Below the pieces are notes generated by a model. The model made no database searches. It saw nothing but the letters and a program-made list of their open reading frames with translations, and was not told the origin of the DNA. Below are positions 4,404 through 11,331 of a DNA stretch of 21,220 nt, piece after piece. The stretch is taken from positions 1-21,220 of IMG/VR virus record IMGVR_UViG_2547132274_000016; one strand, given 5' to 3'. Position 1 is the stretch's first letter; the number at the start of each line of letters is the position of its first letter. The stretch comes from a virus. Lineage: Duplodnaviria > Heunggongvirae > Uroviricota > Caudoviricetes. Position numbers and translations under genes: made by a program.

Positions 4404-4675
4404 GTATTCGTATCGAAATTGGCGAACGTTATGTCGTTACCAGTGACAGCTTTCAGTTTATTCTCCACGAGAAAAAGAGAGCGGAAAGCGGTAAAAACGC
4501 CGGCCAGGAATGGCTGGCGGTGGTTGGTTATTACCCGAAATTAAGCCAGCTCGTTTCCGGCATGATGCATCACGATATTCTGACCGGAAGCGCAAAATCT
4601 TTTGCTGATTTAAACGCGCAGGTTGAGCAACTCAGCAAGCGTTGTTCAGAGGCTTTTGGCTCACATGGCCGTTAA
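4400..4675 (+). CDS. Small early hypothetical protein immediately upstream of A
   Basis: 91-aa ORF, 4-nt start overlap with previous gene, 3' end overlaps the A start. Confidence 0.5.
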   Translation: MSIRIEIGERYVVTSDSFQFILHEKKRAESGKNAGQEWLAVVGYYPKLSQLVSGMMHHDILTGSAKSFADLNAQVEQLSKRCSEAFGSHGR

Positions 4676-6950
4676 AGCCTCCGGGCGTTTTGTCCCTCCG
4701 TCAGCATTTGCCGCAGGCACCGGTAAGGCGTTTACCGGTGCTTATGCATGGAACGCGCCACGCGAGGCTGTCGGGCGCGAAAGACCCCTTACACGTGACG
4801 AGATGCGTCAGGTGCAAGGTGTTTTATCCACGATTAACCGCCTGCCTTACTTTTTGCGCTCGCTGTTTACTTCACGCTATGACTACATCCGGCGCAATAA
4901 AAGCCCGGTGCACGGGTTTTATTTCCTCACATCCACTTTTCAGCGTCGTTTATGGCCGCGCATTGAGCGTGTGAATCAGCGCCATGAAATGAACACCGAC
5001 GCGTCGTTGCTGTTTCTGGCAGAGCGTGACCACTATGCGCGCCTGCCGGGAATGAATGACAAGGAGCTGAAAAAGTTTGCTGCCCATATCTCATCGCAGC
5101 TTTTCATGATGTATGAGGAACTCTGCGATGCCTGGGTGGATGCGCATGGCGAAAAAGAATCGCTGTTTACGGATGAGGCGCAGGCACATCTGTATGGTCA
5201 TGTTGCTGGCGCTGCACGTGCTTTCAATATTTCCCCGCTTTACTGGAAAAAATACCGTAAAGGGCAGATGACCACGAGGCAGGCATATTCTGCCATTGCC
5301 CGCCTGTTTAACGATGAGTGGTGGACTCATCAGCTTAAAGGCCAGCGTATGCGCTGGCATGAGGCGTTACTGATTGCTGTCGGGGAGGTCAATAAAGACC
5401 GTTCTCCTTATGCCAGTAAACATGCCATTCGTGATGTGCGTGCGCGCCGCCAGGCAAATCTGGAATTTCTTAAATCGTGTGACCTTGAAAACAAGGAAAC
5501 CGGCGAGCGCATCGACCTTATCAGTAAGGTGATGGGCAGTATTTCTAATCCAGAAATTCGCCGGATGGAGCTGATGAACACCATCGCCGGTATTGAGCGT
5601 TACGCCGCCGCAGAGGGTGATGTGGGGATGTTTATCACGCTGACCGCGCCGTCAAAGTATCACCCGACACGTCAGGTCAGAAAAGGCGAAAGTAAAACCG
5701 TCCAGCTAAATCACGGCTGGAACGATGAGGCATTTAATCCAAAGGATGCGCAGCGTTATCTCTGCCGTATCTGGAGCCTGATGCGCACGGCATTCAAGGA
5801 TAATGATTTACAGGCCTACGGTTTGCGAGTCGTCGAGCCACACCACGACGGAACGCCGCACTGGCATATGATGCTTTTTTGTAATCCACGCCAGCGTAAC
5901 CAGATTATTGAAATCATGCGTCGCTATGCGCTCAAAGAGGATGGCGACGAAAGAGGAGCCGCGCGAAACCGTTTTCAGGCAAAACACCTTAACCGGGGCG
6001 GTGCTGCGGGATATATCGCGAAATACATCTCAAAAAACATCGACGGCTATGCACTGGATGGTCAGCTCGATAACGATACCGGCAGACCGCTGAAAGATAC
6101 TGCGGCGGCTGTTACCGCATGGGCGTCAACGTGGCGCATTCCGCAATTTAAAACGGTTGGTCTGCCGACAATGGGGGCTTACCGTGAACTACGCAAATTG
6201 CCTCGCGGCGTCAGCATTGCTGATGAGTTTGACGAGCGCGTCGAGGCTGCACGCGCCGCTGCAGACAGTGGTGATTTTGCGTTGTATATCAGCGCGCAGG
6301 GCGGGGCAAATGTCCCGCGCGATTGTCAGACTGTCAGGGTCGCCCGTAGCCCGTCGGATGACGTTAACGAGTACGAGGAAGAAGTCGAGAGAGTGGTCGG
6401 CATTTACGCGCCGCATCTCGGCGCGCGTCATATTCATATCACCAGAACGACGGACTGGCGCATTGTTCCGAAAGTGCCGGTCGTTGAGCCTTTGACTTTA
6501 AAAAGCGGCATCGCCGCGCCTCGGAGTCCTGTCAATAACTGTGGAAAGCTCACCGGTGGTGATACTTCGTTACCGGCTCCCACACCTTCTGAGCACGCCG
6601 CAGCAGTACTTAATCTGGTTGATGACGGTGTTATCGAATGGAATGACCAGGAGGTCGTGAAGGCGCTAAGGGGCGCATTAAAACACGGGCTGAGAACGCC
6701 AAATCGTCAGCAAAGAAACGGAAGCCCGTTAAAACCGCATGAAATTGCACCATCGGCCAGACTGACACGGTCGGAACGAATGCAAATTACCCGTATTCGC
6801 GTTGACCTCGCTCAGAACGGTATCAGGCCGCAGCGATGGGAGCTTGAGGCGCTGGCGCGTGGCGCGACCGTAAATTATGACGGGAAAAAATTCACGTATC
6901 CGGTCGCTGATGAGTGGCCGGGATTCTCAACAGTAATGGAGTGGACATGA
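4665..6950 (+). CDS. A: Replication initiation endonuclease A (rolling-circle nickase, P2 gpA-like)
   Basis: 761 aa from MAVKASGRF (track ORF starts 14 codons earlier); contains the HxH metal motif region ...EPHHDGTPHWHMMLF...; length equals P2 A. Confidence 0.9.
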   Translation: MAVKASGRFVPPSAFAAGTGKAFTGAYAWNAPREAVGRERPLTRDEMRQVQGVLSTINRLPYFLRSLFTSRYDYIRRNKSPVHGFYFLTSTFQRRLWPRIERVNQRHEMNTDASLLFLAERDHYARLPGMNDKELKKFAAHISSQLFMMYEELCDAWVDAHGEKESLFTDEAQAHLYGHVAGAARAFNISPLYWKKYRKGQMTTRQAYSAIARLFNDEWWTHQLKGQRMRWHEALLIAVGEVNKDRSPYASKHAIRDVRARRQANLEFLKSCDLENKETGERIDLISKVMGSISNPEIRRMELMNTIAGIERYAAAEGDVGMFITLTAPSKYHPTRQVRKGESKTVQLNHGWNDEAFNPKDAQRYLCRIWSLMRTAFKDNDLQAYGLRVVEPHHDGTPHWHMMLFCNPRQRNQIIEIMRRYALKEDGDERGAARNRFQAKHLNRGGAAGYIAKYISKNIDGYALDGQLDNDTGRPLKDTAAAVTAWASTWRIPQFKTVGLPTMGAYRELRKLPRGVSIADEFDERVEAARAAADSGDFALYISAQGGANVPRDCQTVRVARSPSDDVNEYEEEVERVVGIYAPHLGARHIHITRTTDWRIVPKVPVVEPLTLKSGIAAPRSPVNNCGKLTGGDTSLPAPTPSEHAAAVLNLVDDGVIEWNDQEVVKALRGALKHGLRTPNRQQRNGSPLKPHEIAPSARLTRSERMQITRIRVDLAQNGIRPQRWELEALARGATVNYDGKKFTYPVADEWPGFSTVMEWT

Positions 6951-7402
6951 TGGCAAAAATTCACGAGGTAAAGCTGCACGCAAAATATTTCGACCTTGTG
7001 CTGGAAGGAAAGAAACGCGCAGAGTTTCGGAAAAATGACCGTAATTATGAGCGCGGGGACACGTTGATTTTGCATGAATGGGTGCAGGGTGTGTACACGG
7101 GGCGAAAGGTTGAAGCCCGGATAACAGATGTTACTGACCTGTCAGACTGGCTGGAAGATTATGTATTGCTAAGTATTGAGCTGCTTAATACAGGCACATA
7201 TGAGATTGTGAACTGGAAAGAACTTAGTGAGCGTGGTCTGGTATTCAGAATTAATCATGAAATTATGCATCAGCTCGGCCTTGCTGTTATGTATGAACCA
7301 GAGACGGGGATGTCTGGCGGGGCAATGGTTGCCATGGATGGAGCATGGAACTATTCAGATGAACAGATGGAGCGTGCACAGCAAAACGGGTGGCTTGGAT
7401 AA
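6947..7402 (+). CDS. DUF3850/ASCH-like (PUA-fold) domain protein, cargo gene 1
   Basis: Start ATG overlaps the A stop (ATGA); N-terminal ~70 aa (KIHEVKLHAKYFDLVLEGKKRAEFRKNDRNYERGDTLILHEW) resembles ASCH/DUF3850 domains; assignment from motif memory only. Confidence 0.55.
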   Translation: MMAKIHEVKLHAKYFDLVLEGKKRAEFRKNDRNYERGDTLILHEWVQGVYTGRKVEARITDVTDLSDWLEDYVLLSIELLNTGTYEIVNWKELSERGLVFRINHEIMHQLGLAVMYEPETGMSGGAMVAMDGAWNYSDEQMERAQQNGWLG

Positions 7403-7608
7403 TGCACAGAATACCAGGCGAGATACCGCACCATAAAACTAAAAATATCAAGCTGATGGCTATTGTTCAGCGTTTACAGCGGATTATGGTCAACGAAAAT
7501 CTGACGCCAGATGAGCTAGTCGGGTGTGCCGAAATAGTCCGGGATAATTACGGGCGGTTTAACCATATCGGTCAATCAAGAGTTACGCCACCACCACGCA
7601 GACGATAG
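7402..7608 (+). CDS. Small hypothetical protein, cargo gene 2
   Basis: 68-aa ORF whose ATG overlaps the upstream TAA (TAATG); basic C-terminus (PPPRRR); no recognisable domain. Confidence 0.4.
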   Translation: MHRIPGEIPHHKTKNIKLMAIVQRLQRIMVNENLTPDELVGCAEIVRDNYGRFNHIGQSRVTPPPRRR

Positions 7609-7837
7609 AGAACGCCGCCAGTCGTGAAACTTGTTTTCAGGGCTGGCGGGGTTGAACAACGAGCGAAGCGAGGCGTTAGTTGACAGTCATATTTTTACTG
7701 CGTTGGTGCTGGTTTTTGACGGTTGAAAGGAGTTAGCTCGGAGAGCTAAAGCTAACAACTTACAAATATTCAAAAGTAAGCTTCCTGTTGCTAACATAAG
7801 GTCGATTTTTTATGTGGATGATGCAAAAAGGATAGCT

Positions 7838-8569
7838 ATGGATATTGTAATCGCTTTTCTATCACTCGCTTTTTTCGTTGCTTTTTTCATCGGGTTAATC
7901 AAGCCATCACTGGTGCGGATGCCAAACCGTAAACGTGCAAGTGCGGTTTATCTCGGAGGTGGTTTTGCATTGAGCATAATTGGTTCAATACTCTACCCAA
8001 CAGAAAAAAGCCAGCCAGTTGCTAAAACTGAAACAGCAACCGTAGCAGAACACCAGGCTCAAAAAACATTCGAATATACTGAAAAAACACTCAAGGAATA
8101 TCGGAACGAGCCAAAGAAGACTCGACACGATATTGTGAATAGTTACATTAACTTTAAGAAAGTGCCAGTCACCGCATCAGATGCATTTTATGCCTGCATG
8201 AGTGAGTATACATTTACCAAAGATGATGAGTTGAAACTCGGTGATGTTCTTGGGTGGTGCTTTAATGATTATGAAAATGACCCGAATTCACTAAACAATA
8301 AAATCAATCTTGATACATTTCAGAGCAATTTTAGTGGTTGGGATGGTTCTTATCGTCCATTGGAAAAACTAATTAAAGATAATATGAACGATGATTCATC
8401 TTATAAACATGTGTCAACGGTATATCATTTGGTTTTGAATAAAGACCCGCACGCCATTGTGAAAACCACATTTCGTGGCACTAATGCTTATGGAGGAGTA
8501 GTTAAACAGACTATTGCTGCGCGTGTCGACATCCGAACGGGCGAAGTCGTTTCAGTATTAGATAACTAA
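7838..8569 (+). CDS. Membrane-anchored hypothetical protein (two N-terminal TM helices plus ~175-aa soluble domain), cargo gene 3
   Basis: AAGGA RBS 5 nt before the ATG at 7838 (track ORF from GTG 7814); hydrophobic stretches IVIAFLSLAFFVAFFIGLI and AVYLGGGFALSIIGSIL; AT-rich codon usage unlike the phage backbone. Confidence 0.6.
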   Translation: MDIVIAFLSLAFFVAFFIGLIKPSLVRMPNRKRASAVYLGGGFALSIIGSILYPTEKSQPVAKTETATVAEHQAQKTFEYTEKTLKEYRNEPKKTRHDIVNSYINFKKVPVTASDAFYACMSEYTFTKDDELKLGDVLGWCFNDYENDPNSLNNKINLDTFQSNFSGWDGSYRPLEKLIKDNMNDDSSYKHVSTVYHLVLNKDPHAIVKTTFRGTNAYGGVVKQTIAARVDIRTGEVVSVLDN

Positions 8570-8572
8570 TCG

Positions 8573-8634
8573 TTGATGCCGTATTGACACTTGTTATACT
8601 AGTGGTGGAACGAGACTGTAATAGTCTGTTCCAC
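8573..8634 (+). promoter_or_regulatory. Candidate sigma70 promoter (TTGATG-16 bp-TGtTATACT) followed by a 30-bp imperfect palindrome (operator or 5'-UTR hairpin)
   Basis: -35-like TTGATG 8573..8578, extended -10 TGTTATACT 8592..8600; palindrome GTGGAACgagACTgtaatAGTctgTTCCAC 8605..8634 directly downstream; GAGGGA RBS at 8673. Confidence 0.35.
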
Positions 8635-8681
8635 TACAGGAGTAATTACCTTGACTGTAAGTTGCTTTTATTGAGGGAACT

Positions 8682-9971
8682 ATGAAGTTTAAGACTGAAT
8701 TGAGTCGAAAATTGCATGACTCGGTAGTGTTTGATTTGAAAAAAGACCTGGTAAAATTAGAGGGAAACCTAAAAAATACAGATTTGTTGTTGTCGTTTCA
8801 GTTCAAAATAATAAGGAATATAATTAGAAGTGAAAGGATGATCAAAGAATTAAAGTCTTTCTTAGGGGAACTAAAGGCAACAAAAAGAAAAGGTGGTTTA
8901 AAAAAAGAACAATCTAAACTTATTAAGGAAAATATTAAGAGTGTTGAGCAGGGTATTGATGATGTGAAATTTAAAATATATATCTTCAAAATGTTTGGTG
9001 ATAGTGTTGCTTTTTTGTATTTGGATAAGTTTGATATTAAGCATTTTTTTTATAATGTTGTGGATTACAGTCCCAAGGAGTCAGCGGGCTATATGGGAGG
9101 GAAGGATGGCTTAAAAGAAGAATGGGAATTGGTGAAGAAGGCCTGCAAGGCTGGTGTTCCTACGTTACTCAATGATATTACAATGAGTATGAGGCATGGT
9201 GATGTTTGTTTACTTGGTGAAGGTGCACCAGTACTGGTGGAGGTGAAATCAAGTCAAAATAAAAATGATCGTGTTGAACGTCAAAAAAATAACCTTAATA
9301 GACTAGCTGAATTTTTAGCAGAAGATAAAGCTGAAGATTTTAGAGGGATGCCATTAGTGTTAAGGAAAGAACTGTGTTTTTCAGAAGTTACATATAAAAA
9401 AGAATTTAATGAGCATCTGAATGTATGCAGGAAAAAAGGAATTTCATGGGTAAGGCTAGAAGATGGATTTTATGTGGTATCTAATCGTGGCTGTGATCTG
9501 GAAATAGCATTATCACAGTTGGATCTTAGAGGGAGGAAAATTGCACCTATATTTTTGAATGAATATAAAAATAATCAATTGTGGGTTCCTTTAACTCCGT
9601 TTGTTAATCTTATAAATGATGCGCGTGATTTGTGTGACTTTATAAATGGGGAGTTAACTATTCTCTGTGTTCTTGATTTGGATTGTTTTAAACAAATAGC
9701 TTTGAATGAAGGGTTTGAGCTTGTTTTTGTCGATGGTGAAGACTATTCGATGATATTTAAAGAATTTGGTAGCTCATTGATTTGGGGTGTGTCATGGCAA
9801 ATGATGCTTCGCACTCCTTTAGAAATGGTGTCAATGTCTTGGTTAATTAAAGATTCAATTGATAGATTTAAGCGTTTACAAAAGCAACATGCTGAGATGC
9901 AGCCTGTCACTGATGTTAATACATCCGAAACCTCCTTGTTTGAAAAATATAGGCCTCTTTTTACAAAGTAG
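8682..9971 (+). CDS. Hypothetical protein with PD-(D/E)xK-like nuclease motif, cargo gene 4
   Basis: 429 aa, strong RBS; K/E-rich N-terminal region, then GD(174)-x12-VLVE(187)VK(189) resembling the PD-(D/E)xK catalytic core; no P-loop; very AT-rich. Confidence 0.6.
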   Translation: MKFKTELSRKLHDSVVFDLKKDLVKLEGNLKNTDLLLSFQFKIIRNIIRSERMIKELKSFLGELKATKRKGGLKKEQSKLIKENIKSVEQGIDDVKFKIYIFKMFGDSVAFLYLDKFDIKHFFYNVVDYSPKESAGYMGGKDGLKEEWELVKKACKAGVPTLLNDITMSMRHGDVCLLGEGAPVLVEVKSSQNKNDRVERQKNNLNRLAEFLAEDKAEDFRGMPLVLRKELCFSEVTYKKEFNEHLNVCRKKGISWVRLEDGFYVVSNRGCDLEIALSQLDLRGRKIAPIFLNEYKNNQLWVPLTPFVNLINDARDLCDFINGELTILCVLDLDCFKQIALNEGFELVFVDGEDYSMIFKEFGSSLIWGVSWQMMLRTPLEMVSMSWLIKDSIDRFKRLQKQHAEMQPVTDVNTSETSLFEKYRPLFTK

Positions 9972-10108
9972 TCAGATGCTGTAGGTGTATATGCTATTGC
10001 ATTAATTTGCATGCAAAACAAGTAGAGGTAAAAACTCTTACAGGCTGCTTGGGGGATAGCTTTTGAATGCTAATGCATTTGCATTCAAATTGCCCCACGA
10101 AGCGGGCG

Positions 10109-10127
10109 GGCGAGGCGGGGAAAGCAC
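10109..10127. other. Candidate cos cohesive-end sequence (GGCGAGGCGGGGAAAGCAC)
   Basis: GC-rich non-coding stretch between cargo and Q, where cos lies in a P2 prophage; 19-mer matches my recollection of the P2 cohesive end (to be verified). Confidence 0.5.
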
Positions 10128-10269
10128 TGCGCGCTGGCGGTGGTGCTGATTTTATTTTTTCAGCGTCTGAGCGCGTCGTGGCAGCGTTTAGTCTGCCCGT
10201 TGGGGTGTTGGTGTGTCTGCGGGGTATTTTGTGCGGTGGTGAGCGTGTGAGGGCGTGATGACGGGATGT

Positions 10270-10291
10270 AAAAAAGCCGCCCGCAGGCGGC
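10270..10291 (-). terminator. Intrinsic terminator downstream of Q (end of P-Q operon)
   Basis: GC hairpin GCCGCC-cgca-GGCGGC (10276..10291) followed on the minus strand by a U-run (A-run 10270..10275 on plus strand), 5 nt after the Q stop. Confidence 0.55.
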
Positions 10292-10296
10292 GATGT

Positions 10297-11331
10297 TCAG
10301 CCGTTGTCAGTGTCCAGTGAGTAGTTTTTAAAGCGGATGACCTCCTGACCGAGCCAGCCGTTTATTTCCCGAATCCTGTCCTGTAACGGGATAAGCTCAT
10401 TGCGGACAAAGACCTTTGCCACTTTCTCAATATCGCCCAGTGACCCGACGTTCTCCGGCTTGCCGCCCATCAACTGAAAGGGGATGCGGTGCGCGTCCAG
10501 CAGGTCTGCGGCGCTGGCTTTTTTGATATTAAAAAAATCATCCTTCGTTGCCACTTCACTGAGCGGGATAATTTTAATGCCGTCGGCTTTCCCCTGTGGG
10601 GCATAGAGAAACAGATTTTTAAAGTTATTGCGGCCTTTCGACTTCACCATGTTTTCGCGGAGCATTTCGATATCGTTGCGATCCTGCACGGCATCGGTGA
10701 CGTACATGATGTATCCGGCATGTGCGCCGTTTTCGTAATACTTGCGGCGGAACAGCGTGGCTGATTCATTCAGCCAGGCAGAGTTAAGGGCGCTGAGATA
10801 TTCCGGCAGGCCGTACAGCTCCTGATTAATATCCGGCTCCAGCAGGTGAAACACGGAACCGGGCGCGAAGGCTGTCGGCTCGTTGAAGGACGGCACCCAC
10901 CAGTAAACATCCTCTTCCACACCACGGCGGGTATATTTTGCCGGTGAGATTTCCAGTCTGATGACCTTACCGGTGGTGCTGTAACGCTTTTCCAGAAACG
11001 CATTACCGAACACCAGAAAATCCAGCACAAAGCGGCTGAAATCCTACTGGGAAAGCCACGGATGCGGGATAAATGTCGAGGCCAGAATATTACGTTTGAC
11101 GTAAATCGGTGAGCTGTGATGTACGGCAGCACGCAGGCTTTTTGCCAGACCGGTAAAGCTGATCGGTGGCTCATACCATCTGCCGTTACTGATGCACTCG
11201 ACGTAATCCAGAATGTCACGGCGGTCGAGTACCGGCACCGGCTCACCAAAGGTGAATGCCTCCATTTTCGGGGCGCTGGCGGTCATTTTTTTTGCCGCAG
11301 GTTGCGGTGTTTTCCCTTTTTTCTTGCTCAT
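10297..11331 (-). pseudogene. Q: Portal protein gpQ interrupted by one in-frame TAG codon at 11044..11046
   Basis: Two ORFs (11044..11331, 95 aa; 10297..11028, 243 aa) are in the same frame and separated only by TAG; together ~344 codons as in P2 Q; reading through gives ...PWLSQ*DFSRFVLDFLVF... Confidence 0.6.

Follow-up and report, generated by a model that had tools for sequence, protein, structure and literature searches.

A gene for a protein of 429 amino acids (aa), carried in the variable region between gpA and the portal gene Q of an Escherichia coli P2-like prophage, encodes what we take, with a probability of about 0.6, to be a single-protein, metal-dependent PD-(D/E)xK DNA endonuclease that serves as accessory cargo and protects the lysogen against other phages. 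The gene lies in IMG/VR record IMGVR_UViG_2547132274_000016, of which a stretch of 21,220 nucleotides (nt) was analysed (the window; coordinates count from its position 1), and the gene content and synteny of the window are those of a P2-like prophage of E. coli. The protein has been catalogued before and never annotated, and it belongs to a family that is previously undescribed, widespread, and stand-alone.

The initial annotation, made from the letters of the DNA, had drawn a 429-aa open reading frame (ORF) at this place, and the frame stands as drawn (Table 1). At the DNA level the coding sequence (CDS) is ~99% identical to the RefSeq CDS WP_152071463.1, there annotated 'hypothetical protein'. 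No family in Pfam, NCBIfam, or PADLOC matched any part of the protein (in PADLOC-DB v2.0.0, of 2023, 0 families at E ≤ 1), and its sole library match was phrog_14906, a family of 'unknown function' with which it aligned end to end. A word-indexed search returned 25 relatives, and HMMER, run exhaustively over 1.84 billion cluster representatives, returned 563 at E ≤ 1e-3, of which 169 reached E ≤ 1e-30; of the best 150 of these matches, most are ~400 aa long and aligned across nearly the whole query.

Residues 171–189 had been read as a PD-(D/E)xK signature. They are RHGDVCLLGEGAPVLVEVK, and D174 and K189 are encoded where they had been placed (nt 9246–9248 in the case of K189), but of the signature itself only the part that draws on homologues carries weight. 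When the protein is shuffled, 98.75% of the resulting sequences hold the bare pattern D-x(8-20)-[DE]-x-K, with a mean of 5.3 matches as compared with 4 in the real protein, and because shuffled sequences match as often the pattern alone is not significant. The weight of the PD-(D/E)xK case comes, as judged from the alignments, from conservation. Across 131 diverse homologues, each ~25–45% identical to the window protein, seven columns and no others are invariant (G143, E147, D174, E187, K189, R197, and Q201), and E51, G106-D107, K120, D165, T167, R171, D215, R228, E260, G262, P306, R377, E381, and S384 are near-invariant in the 25- and 131-sequence alignments.

An AlphaFold2 run with the 25-sequence alignment gave a confident full-length model (predicted local distance difference test, pLDDT, 89.5; predicted template modelling score, pTM, 0.89), in which residues 142–220 form the canonical PD-(D/E)xK arrangement. 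Its elements (helix 142–156, strands 161–163, 175–177, and 184–186, helix 196–214, and strand 216–220) follow the alpha-beta-beta-beta-alpha-beta order of a restriction-endonuclease-like core, the outcome for which the initial annotation had proposed structure prediction as a check. The N-terminal ~130 residues, described there as lysine/glutamate-rich, coiled-coil-like, and conceivably a sensor or regulatory region, are lysine-rich and not K/E-rich (23 K and 8 E in the first 130), and the first ~115 residues are modelled with high confidence as a long antiparallel helical hairpin, with helices at 13–28, 33–70, and 75–113 by DSSP, which holds the near-invariant E51 and an F-G-D motif (G106, D107). 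When the core was modelled without residues 1–95, the pLDDT was 74 as opposed to 89.5 for the full-length model, and this loss of confidence suggests that the hairpin packs against the nuclease core. Of the C-terminal ~240 residues, said to hold no recognisable motif, the description is apt for residues 239–405, which match nothing, whereas the nuclease core extends to about residue 235. The C-terminal domain ends in a long helix in the model; neither its profile compared with the PDB nor 66 members scanned with Pfam yielded anything but noise, and a database search with the profile returned fragments of the same family and nothing else.

Comparison with known folds leads to the Holliday junction resolvase Hjc. 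A 109-residue hidden Markov model (HMM) of the core, built from 62 sequences and run against all PDB sequences, placed Hjc chains at the top (1hh1, 4tkk, 2eo0, and 4tkd, with E 0.13–0.5), and in the HMM alignment E12, D42, E55, and K57 of Hjc pair with E147, D174, E187, and K189, respectively. An hhalign comparison of the core with Hjc returned a probability of 70.8% and an E of 3.8e-5. Taken one by one against Pfam and NCBIfam, the core sequences gave matches that were all sub-threshold, and the recognisable ones were mostly PD-(D/E)xK families (Hjc, PDDEXK_15, PDDEXK_9, PDDEXK_10, SmaI, HSDR_N, YraN, Cas4, and sce7726); the weak match to sce7726 (NF033832) remained sub-threshold on a family-wide scan. 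The full-length profile run against PDB sequences yielded coiled-coil noise alone. Individually weak, these fold signals agree with the predicted topology and the conservation pattern, and because of this agreement a PD-(D/E)xK core is very likely and the protein is likely a nuclease of this kind.

The location of the gene points toward defence. The prophage has the gene order integrase, C/Cox, gpA (4623–6950), a DUF3850/ASCH protein, two low-GC genes, and portal Q, 3' of which the window holds the terminase, scaffold, capsid, and lysis/tail genes. Within the variable stretch from gpA to Q, the 429-aa gene lies ~140 nt from cos, and its GC content is 33.8% as compared with 52–57% in the flanking phage genes. 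Between positions 8000 and 10000 the coding-strand GC skew reaches +0.35 to +0.39 at a GC content of 34–36%, far beyond the range of the rest of the prophage; such skew and low GC are, as features of sequence composition, consistent with a recent acquisition of the cargo from a low-GC donor. Anti-phage genes are known to concentrate in two hotspots, one at the cos-proximal gpA-Q locus in P2-like phages and one at the psu-int locus in P4-like satellites (Rousset et al. 2022, PMC9122126), and the 429-aa gene has both the position and the variability between similar elements that mark the cargo of these hotspots. At least 80% of the stretch from 7600 to 10300 is present in 17 of 5426 E. coli genomes, and some part of it in 2146; the 429-aa gene itself is present in 27 of the 5426, and most P2-like phages lack it. 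In a Citrobacter P2-like prophage, a 70%-identical homologue is the sole called gene between gpA and the portal gene. Homologues of 50–52% identity lie directly 3' of psu, both in a Pluralibacter P4 remnant and in E. coli P4-like satellites that are intact and sit at tRNA-Sec. A 2026 NAR study reports that P2 and P4 hotspots almost never exchange defence genes; the 429-aa family is one of few cargo types present in both. A restriction-like or abortive-infection effector, as the initial annotation had suggested, fits both hotspots as well as the defence systems that adjoin family members elsewhere.

Table 1. Features of the window that bear on the 429-aa gene, in order of position
Feature	Position (nt)	Strand	Basis or remark
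Probable left (gpA-side) hotspot border: GC-rich hairpin AACGCCGCCAG...CTGGCGGGGTT	7611..7653, element to about 7680	+	conservation
Upstream gene for 243-aa two-transmembrane protein, putative independent hotspot cassette	7838..8569	+	synteny, distribution
Promoter-like site TTGATG-16 nt-TATACT, with TG before the -10 (extended -10)	8573..8600	+	consensus match alone
Imperfect inverted repeat GTGGTGGAAC ... GTTCCACTAC	8602..8637	+	between promoter-like site and ribosome-binding site of 429-aa gene
Ribosome-binding site GAGGG of 429-aa gene	8674-8678	+	
CDS of 429-aa stand-alone nuclease candidate	8682..9971, including stop codon	+	ATG start; full-length homologues; phrog_14906
Predicted N-terminal long antiparallel helical hairpin, residues 13-113	8718..9020	+	AlphaFold DSSP, pLDDT mostly above 90
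Predicted PD-(D/E)xK-type core, residues 142-220	9105..9341	+	helix-strand-strand-strand-helix-strand; AlphaFold, conservation, and profile comparisons
E147 codon, invariant	9120..9122	+	first core helix; aligned to catalytic E12 of S. solfataricus Hjc
D174 codon, invariant	9201..9203	+	immediately before strand 2; aligned to Hjc D42
E187-V-K189 codons, E and K invariant	9240..9248	+	end of strand 3; aligned to Hjc E55 and K57
R197...Q201 codons, both invariant	9270..9284	+	helix following the ExK strand
Predicted C-terminal alpha/beta domain, residues 239-405	9396..9896	+	near-invariant E260, G262, P306, R377, S384
Right hotspot border: 19-mer GGCGAGGCGGGGAAAGCAC	10109..10127	+	~140 nt downstream of 429-aa gene

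Both hotspot variants have been recorded previously. Rousset et al. (2022, PMC9122126) list the 429-aa protein as the single-gene P2 system #138 (16 occurrences) and its P4 relative as P4 system #32 (48 occurrences), each with no domain annotation. The protein is absent from the DefensePredictor supplements and from File S3, the novel-system annotation in the preprint of the 2026 P2/P4 study, and a literature search found no paper citing its accession numbers. In the P4-like satellite of E. coli 07-4299 (locus L095, 7113–8486, minus strand), a gene for a 457-aa hypothetical protein, WP_001406847, is convergent with the P4 variant, and the two are co-listed many times in Table S1A of the same catalogue (PMC9122126). 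This protein has no match among PDB sequences, and since the Pluralibacter locus lacks its gene, this is probably one more independent cassette.

The family extends far beyond coliphages. A scan of one genome per species, 185,579 in all, identified 89 relatives, and the 80 loci retrieved come from Alpha-, Beta-, and Gammaproteobacteria, Acidobacteriota, Chloroflexota, Bacteroidota, Planctomycetota, Nitrospinota, Myxococcota, and others; relatives also occur on 20 IMG/VR viral contigs, and in V. cholerae the family gene follows a serine recombinase gene. The 146 immediate neighbours include genes for SIR2 proteins (Dsr1/ThsA-like), SMC/AAA ATPases (LmuB/AriA/PtuA-like), Shedu SduA (in two loci), MADS genes, resolvases, and integrases, and among the named ones are GajB of Gabija, QatC, the AbiJ-like PDC-S32, a RES-domain protein, and a tyrosine integrase, with Lamassu genes represented as well. 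Complete RosmerTA pairs (RmrT and RmrA, from overlapping genes) adjoin homologues in Ramlibacter (locus L002, 6119–7982) and Pseudomonas (locus L060, 9475–11194). When every ORF within 8 kb was compared all-against-all in 83 loci from many phyla, no conserved neighbour gene was found, and the only clusters that recurred were a generic ABC ATPase family and shadow ORFs antisense to the family gene.

A defence role of the 429-aa protein is probable, and a mechanism can be sketched. A temperate phage would carry the gene as an accessory 'moron', and the lysogen would gain protection against other phages. The catalytic centre would be a minimal Hjc/YraN-like core formed by E147, D174, E187-x-K189, and R197/Q201, flanked by a long helical hairpin packed on it and by a family-specific C-terminal domain. 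As no antitoxin, methyltransferase, or sensor gene is conserved alongside, specificity or auto-inhibition would lie within the polypeptide, which would thus combine the nuclease with target recognition or with its restraint in uninfected cells; the hairpin and/or the C-terminal domain are the candidates for this task. The enzyme might cleave phage DNA selectively, in a restriction-like manner that depends, for example, on branched or modified DNA, or it might kill the infected cell by abortive infection. Given the Hjc-like core, branched DNA is the natural guess for the substrate by analogy, and a Type IV-like dependence on modified DNA would be an equally open alternative. It is enticing to speculate that the family constitutes a self-contained 'immune junction nuclease', in which an Hjc-type core cuts a DNA structure, such as branched intermediates or modified DNA, that arises solely while phages replicate or are packaged, the C-terminal domain acts as specificity or sensor module, and the hairpin serves in dimerisation or auto-inhibition, so that a single protein, found in the helper P2, the satellite P4, and many phyla, would sense and cleave; this elaborate version we regard as tentative and, with all its parts together, rather unlikely.

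Precedent for defensive cargo of this sort comes from the P4 hotspot, in which six of eight randomly chosen unannotated loci, Aernus among them, protected E. coli against phages (Moura de Sousa et al. 2026). Several observations weigh against an anti-phage nuclease. Foldseek, the second part of the structural check proposed with the initial annotation, found no match with E < 0.5 when the full model was compared with the PDB. The P2 hotspot also holds non-defence cargo, e.g. partition systems and a cytolethal distending toxin (PMC9122126), and the 429-aa protein, like the product of the upstream 243-aa gene, is absent from the table of tested systems (Table S2) of that study. The richness of defence genes among the neighbours was judged from family counts. 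Finally, a lone nuclease would need a means of sparing its host.

The strongest competitor holds that the protein confers no immunity and is either a DNA-processing enzyme serving the element, which might resolve junctions, recombine DNA, restart replication, or degrade host or competitor DNA at induction, or a selfish or addictive nuclease. The nearest solved relatives are, after all, Holliday junction resolvases, and phages often carry resolvases of their own; the non-defence cargo of the hotspot (PMC9122126) lends this idea further credit. The distribution of the gene is, however, sporadic both in E. coli and across species, its GC content is foreign to the phage backbone, and the family is found in both the P2 and the P4 hotspot as well as next to known defence systems in chromosomal islands, features that fit an accessory gene and not a core phage function. 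That most P2-like phages do without the gene, and that the protein is three times the size of Hjc and has two additional conserved domains, also count against a DNA-processing enzyme, and on balance this explanation appears unlikely.

A nuclease acting in partnership is another option to consider, with the 243-aa two-transmembrane (TM) protein and the 429-aa protein working together, e.g. as membrane sensor and nuclease effector. This is a doubtful proposition. The two low-GC genes follow one another on one strand with 112 nt between them, all 17 of the E. coli genomes with at least 80% of the 7600–10300 stretch have both, and Rousset's raw table lists them together; yet in the Citrobacter prophage the 70% homologue stands alone among called genes between gpA and the portal gene, the 243-aa gene is missing from the P4 variants, and comparison of the 83 loci revealed no conserved neighbour. 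The gene that follows the 243-aa gene varies (260 aa in IHE3034, 224 aa in Klebsiella), which is readable as a constant sensor with swappable effectors, but homology between the window and IHE3034 stops at the 243-aa stop codon, the 243-aa gene is present in 93 E. coli genomes as opposed to 27 for the 429-aa gene, and a promoter-like site lies between the two. Rousset et al. curated them as separate single-gene systems, the 243-aa protein as P2 #12 (210 occurrences, '2 TM') and the 429-aa protein as #138 (PMC9122126). Synteny and distribution thus argue for independent cassettes. The 224-aa Klebsiella gene, considered as a possible relative of the 429-aa gene, was rejected, the two sequences being unrelated. 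The 243-aa protein itself has two N-terminal hydrophobic helices, no domain match, and a larger family of its own in Enterobacterales.

A catalytically dead PD-(D/E)xK-like domain, which would make the protein a DNA-binding or structural factor, is very improbable: many PD-(D/E)xK folds have lost activity, but in this family exactly the metal-binding and catalytic residues are invariant across 131 diverse sequences, and inactivated lineages show the opposite. Hardly credible is that the protein is the RosmerTA toxin RmrT, or the toxin of another toxin–antitoxin module with a missed antitoxin, since, although the family gene in Ramlibacter lies 3–18 nt downstream of a gene for RmrA (helix-turn-helix and M78 peptidase; E 4.5e-130), RmrA is also nearby in a second locus, and the toxins partnered by RmrA antitoxins are known to vary (PMC10440598), both loci already hold a complete RmrT–RmrA pair whose RmrT (219 aa, E 3e-19, or 204 aa, E 1e-24) overlaps RmrA, the homologue lies downstream of the pair in one locus and upstream in the other, the 429-aa protein matches no RmrT model in PADLOC, and no RmrA or small antitoxin-like gene is conserved beside the family, with no RmrA in the window or in 81 other loci. 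The identification as RosmerTA toxin was accordingly rejected, the pairs in Ramlibacter and Pseudomonas being neighbouring systems and not partners.

As far as can be inferred, the 429-aa protein works like known single-protein nuclease defences and has a distinct domain make-up. The nearest known relatives of its core are Hjc/Hje (PF01870) and YraN/UPF0102. Hjc, however, is a protein of ~140 aa with no extra domains, to which the 429-aa protein adds a hairpin of ~110 residues and a C-terminal domain of ~170 residues; the Hjc Pfam model scores 13.7 bits against a cut-off of 21.1, a weak match found in just two of the 62 core sequences; and the invariant R197/Q201 also set the family apart from Hjc. 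Moreover, the 429-aa gene is a mobile accessory of phages and islands, whereas Hjc is a core recombination gene.

Shedu (SduA, DUF4263/PF14082), an anti-phage system carried in defence islands, consists of one gene whose product unites a PD-(D/E)xK nuclease with non-catalytic domains. The 429-aa protein shares this one-gene plan and this combination in a single polypeptide. It differs in showing no match to SduA_C or to PADLOC SduA (E ≤ 1, in a core-only scan as well), in its domain order of hairpin, nuclease, and C-terminal domain, and in a nuclease core of another subfamily. Aernus 5A and Bandua 4A were likewise unannotated P4-hotspot cargo with PD-(D/E)xK domains, and each gave E. coli protection from phages of several families (Moura de Sousa et al. 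2026); the top Foldseek match of Aernus 5A, moreover, is a Holliday junction resolving enzyme. Aernus 5A, however, carries DUF4365 and AbiGii, Bandua 4A carries NERD, and both are two-gene loci. Neither PF08378 (NERD) nor PF14280 (DUF4365) matched the 429-aa family, even at E ≤ 10 on the 62 core sequences, and thus Aernus and Bandua appear to be other families, set apart by Pfam domains as opposed to direct sequence comparison.

With the Type IV (Mrr-type) restriction enzymes, the protein shares the plan of a stand-alone PD-(D/E)xK endonuclease with no methyltransferase or antitoxin, and a Type IV-like mode would explain how a lone nuclease spares its host. The catalogue of the P2 hotspot indeed holds a 'Type-IV restriction enzyme' entry (PMC9122126). 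The difference is that Pfam detected no Mrr_cat, other Type IV domain, or modified-base reader in the 429-aa protein. The P2 genes old and tin occupy the same gpA-Q position by cos and are phage-exclusion genes expressed from the prophage (PMC9122126); Old, however, is an ATPase-TOPRIM nuclease and Tin is unrelated, and neither has sequence or domain similarity to the 429-aa protein.

Were an anti-phage role confirmed, a compact (1.3 kb) family of single-gene anti-phage nucleases would be added to those known, with ~560 sequence clusters in Proteobacteria, Acidobacteriota, Chloroflexota, Bacteroidota, Planctomycetota, and others that Pfam, NCBIfam, and PADLOC v2 do not recognise. An Hjc-like core with two conserved extra domains and no partner poses the question of how a lone nuclease stays harmless to its host, and the predicted catalytic residues are already pinpointed for mutagenesis. 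Even if the protein proves ordinary, the catalogue entries #138 and #32 and phrog_14906 gain an annotation as a PD-(D/E)xK nuclease of Hjc-like type.

Several features of the surrounding DNA complete the description of the locus. The hairpin on the gpA side, together with ~30 nt 3' of it, is conserved in the Citrobacter and E. coli IHE3034 prophages exactly where divergence begins, and from this sequence context it probably both terminates the gpA operon and marks the hotspot's left recombination border. The 19-mer on the other side, also present in the cloned P4 loci sequence, is what we take to be the P2/P4 cos cohesive end. Beside it lies a near-perfect 14+14 palindrome (10062–10089), and both are overlapped by a 63-aa ORF (10067–10258) that matches phrog_17350 (E 7e-36) and despite this match is probably not a gene. 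The promoter-like site upstream of the 429-aa gene starts 4 nt past the stop codon of the 243-aa gene, and the inverted repeat that follows may act as an operator, form an RNA structure, or be the hairpin at the 3' end of the upstream transcript. Comparison of the DNA upstream of the gene in the P2 and P4 variants showed no conservation, and no regulatory element shared by the two was found.

In E. coli 19KM1831, the closest matching genome (locus L001, 4751–8351), the cargo genes are intact and an insertion sequence of the IS3 family splits gpA; because of this split the 19KM1831 prophage is probably defective. In the window gpA is intact (775 aa). A DUF3850/ASCH + DUF7415 protein is encoded at 6914–7402 on the plus strand, overlapping the end of gpA. 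In Table S3 of Rousset et al. (2022, PMC9122126), the same domain protein is the product of the third gene cloned in the P2 'old-tin' construct. Because domains of the ASCH/EVE type often read modified bases, this protein may itself be relevant to exclusion.

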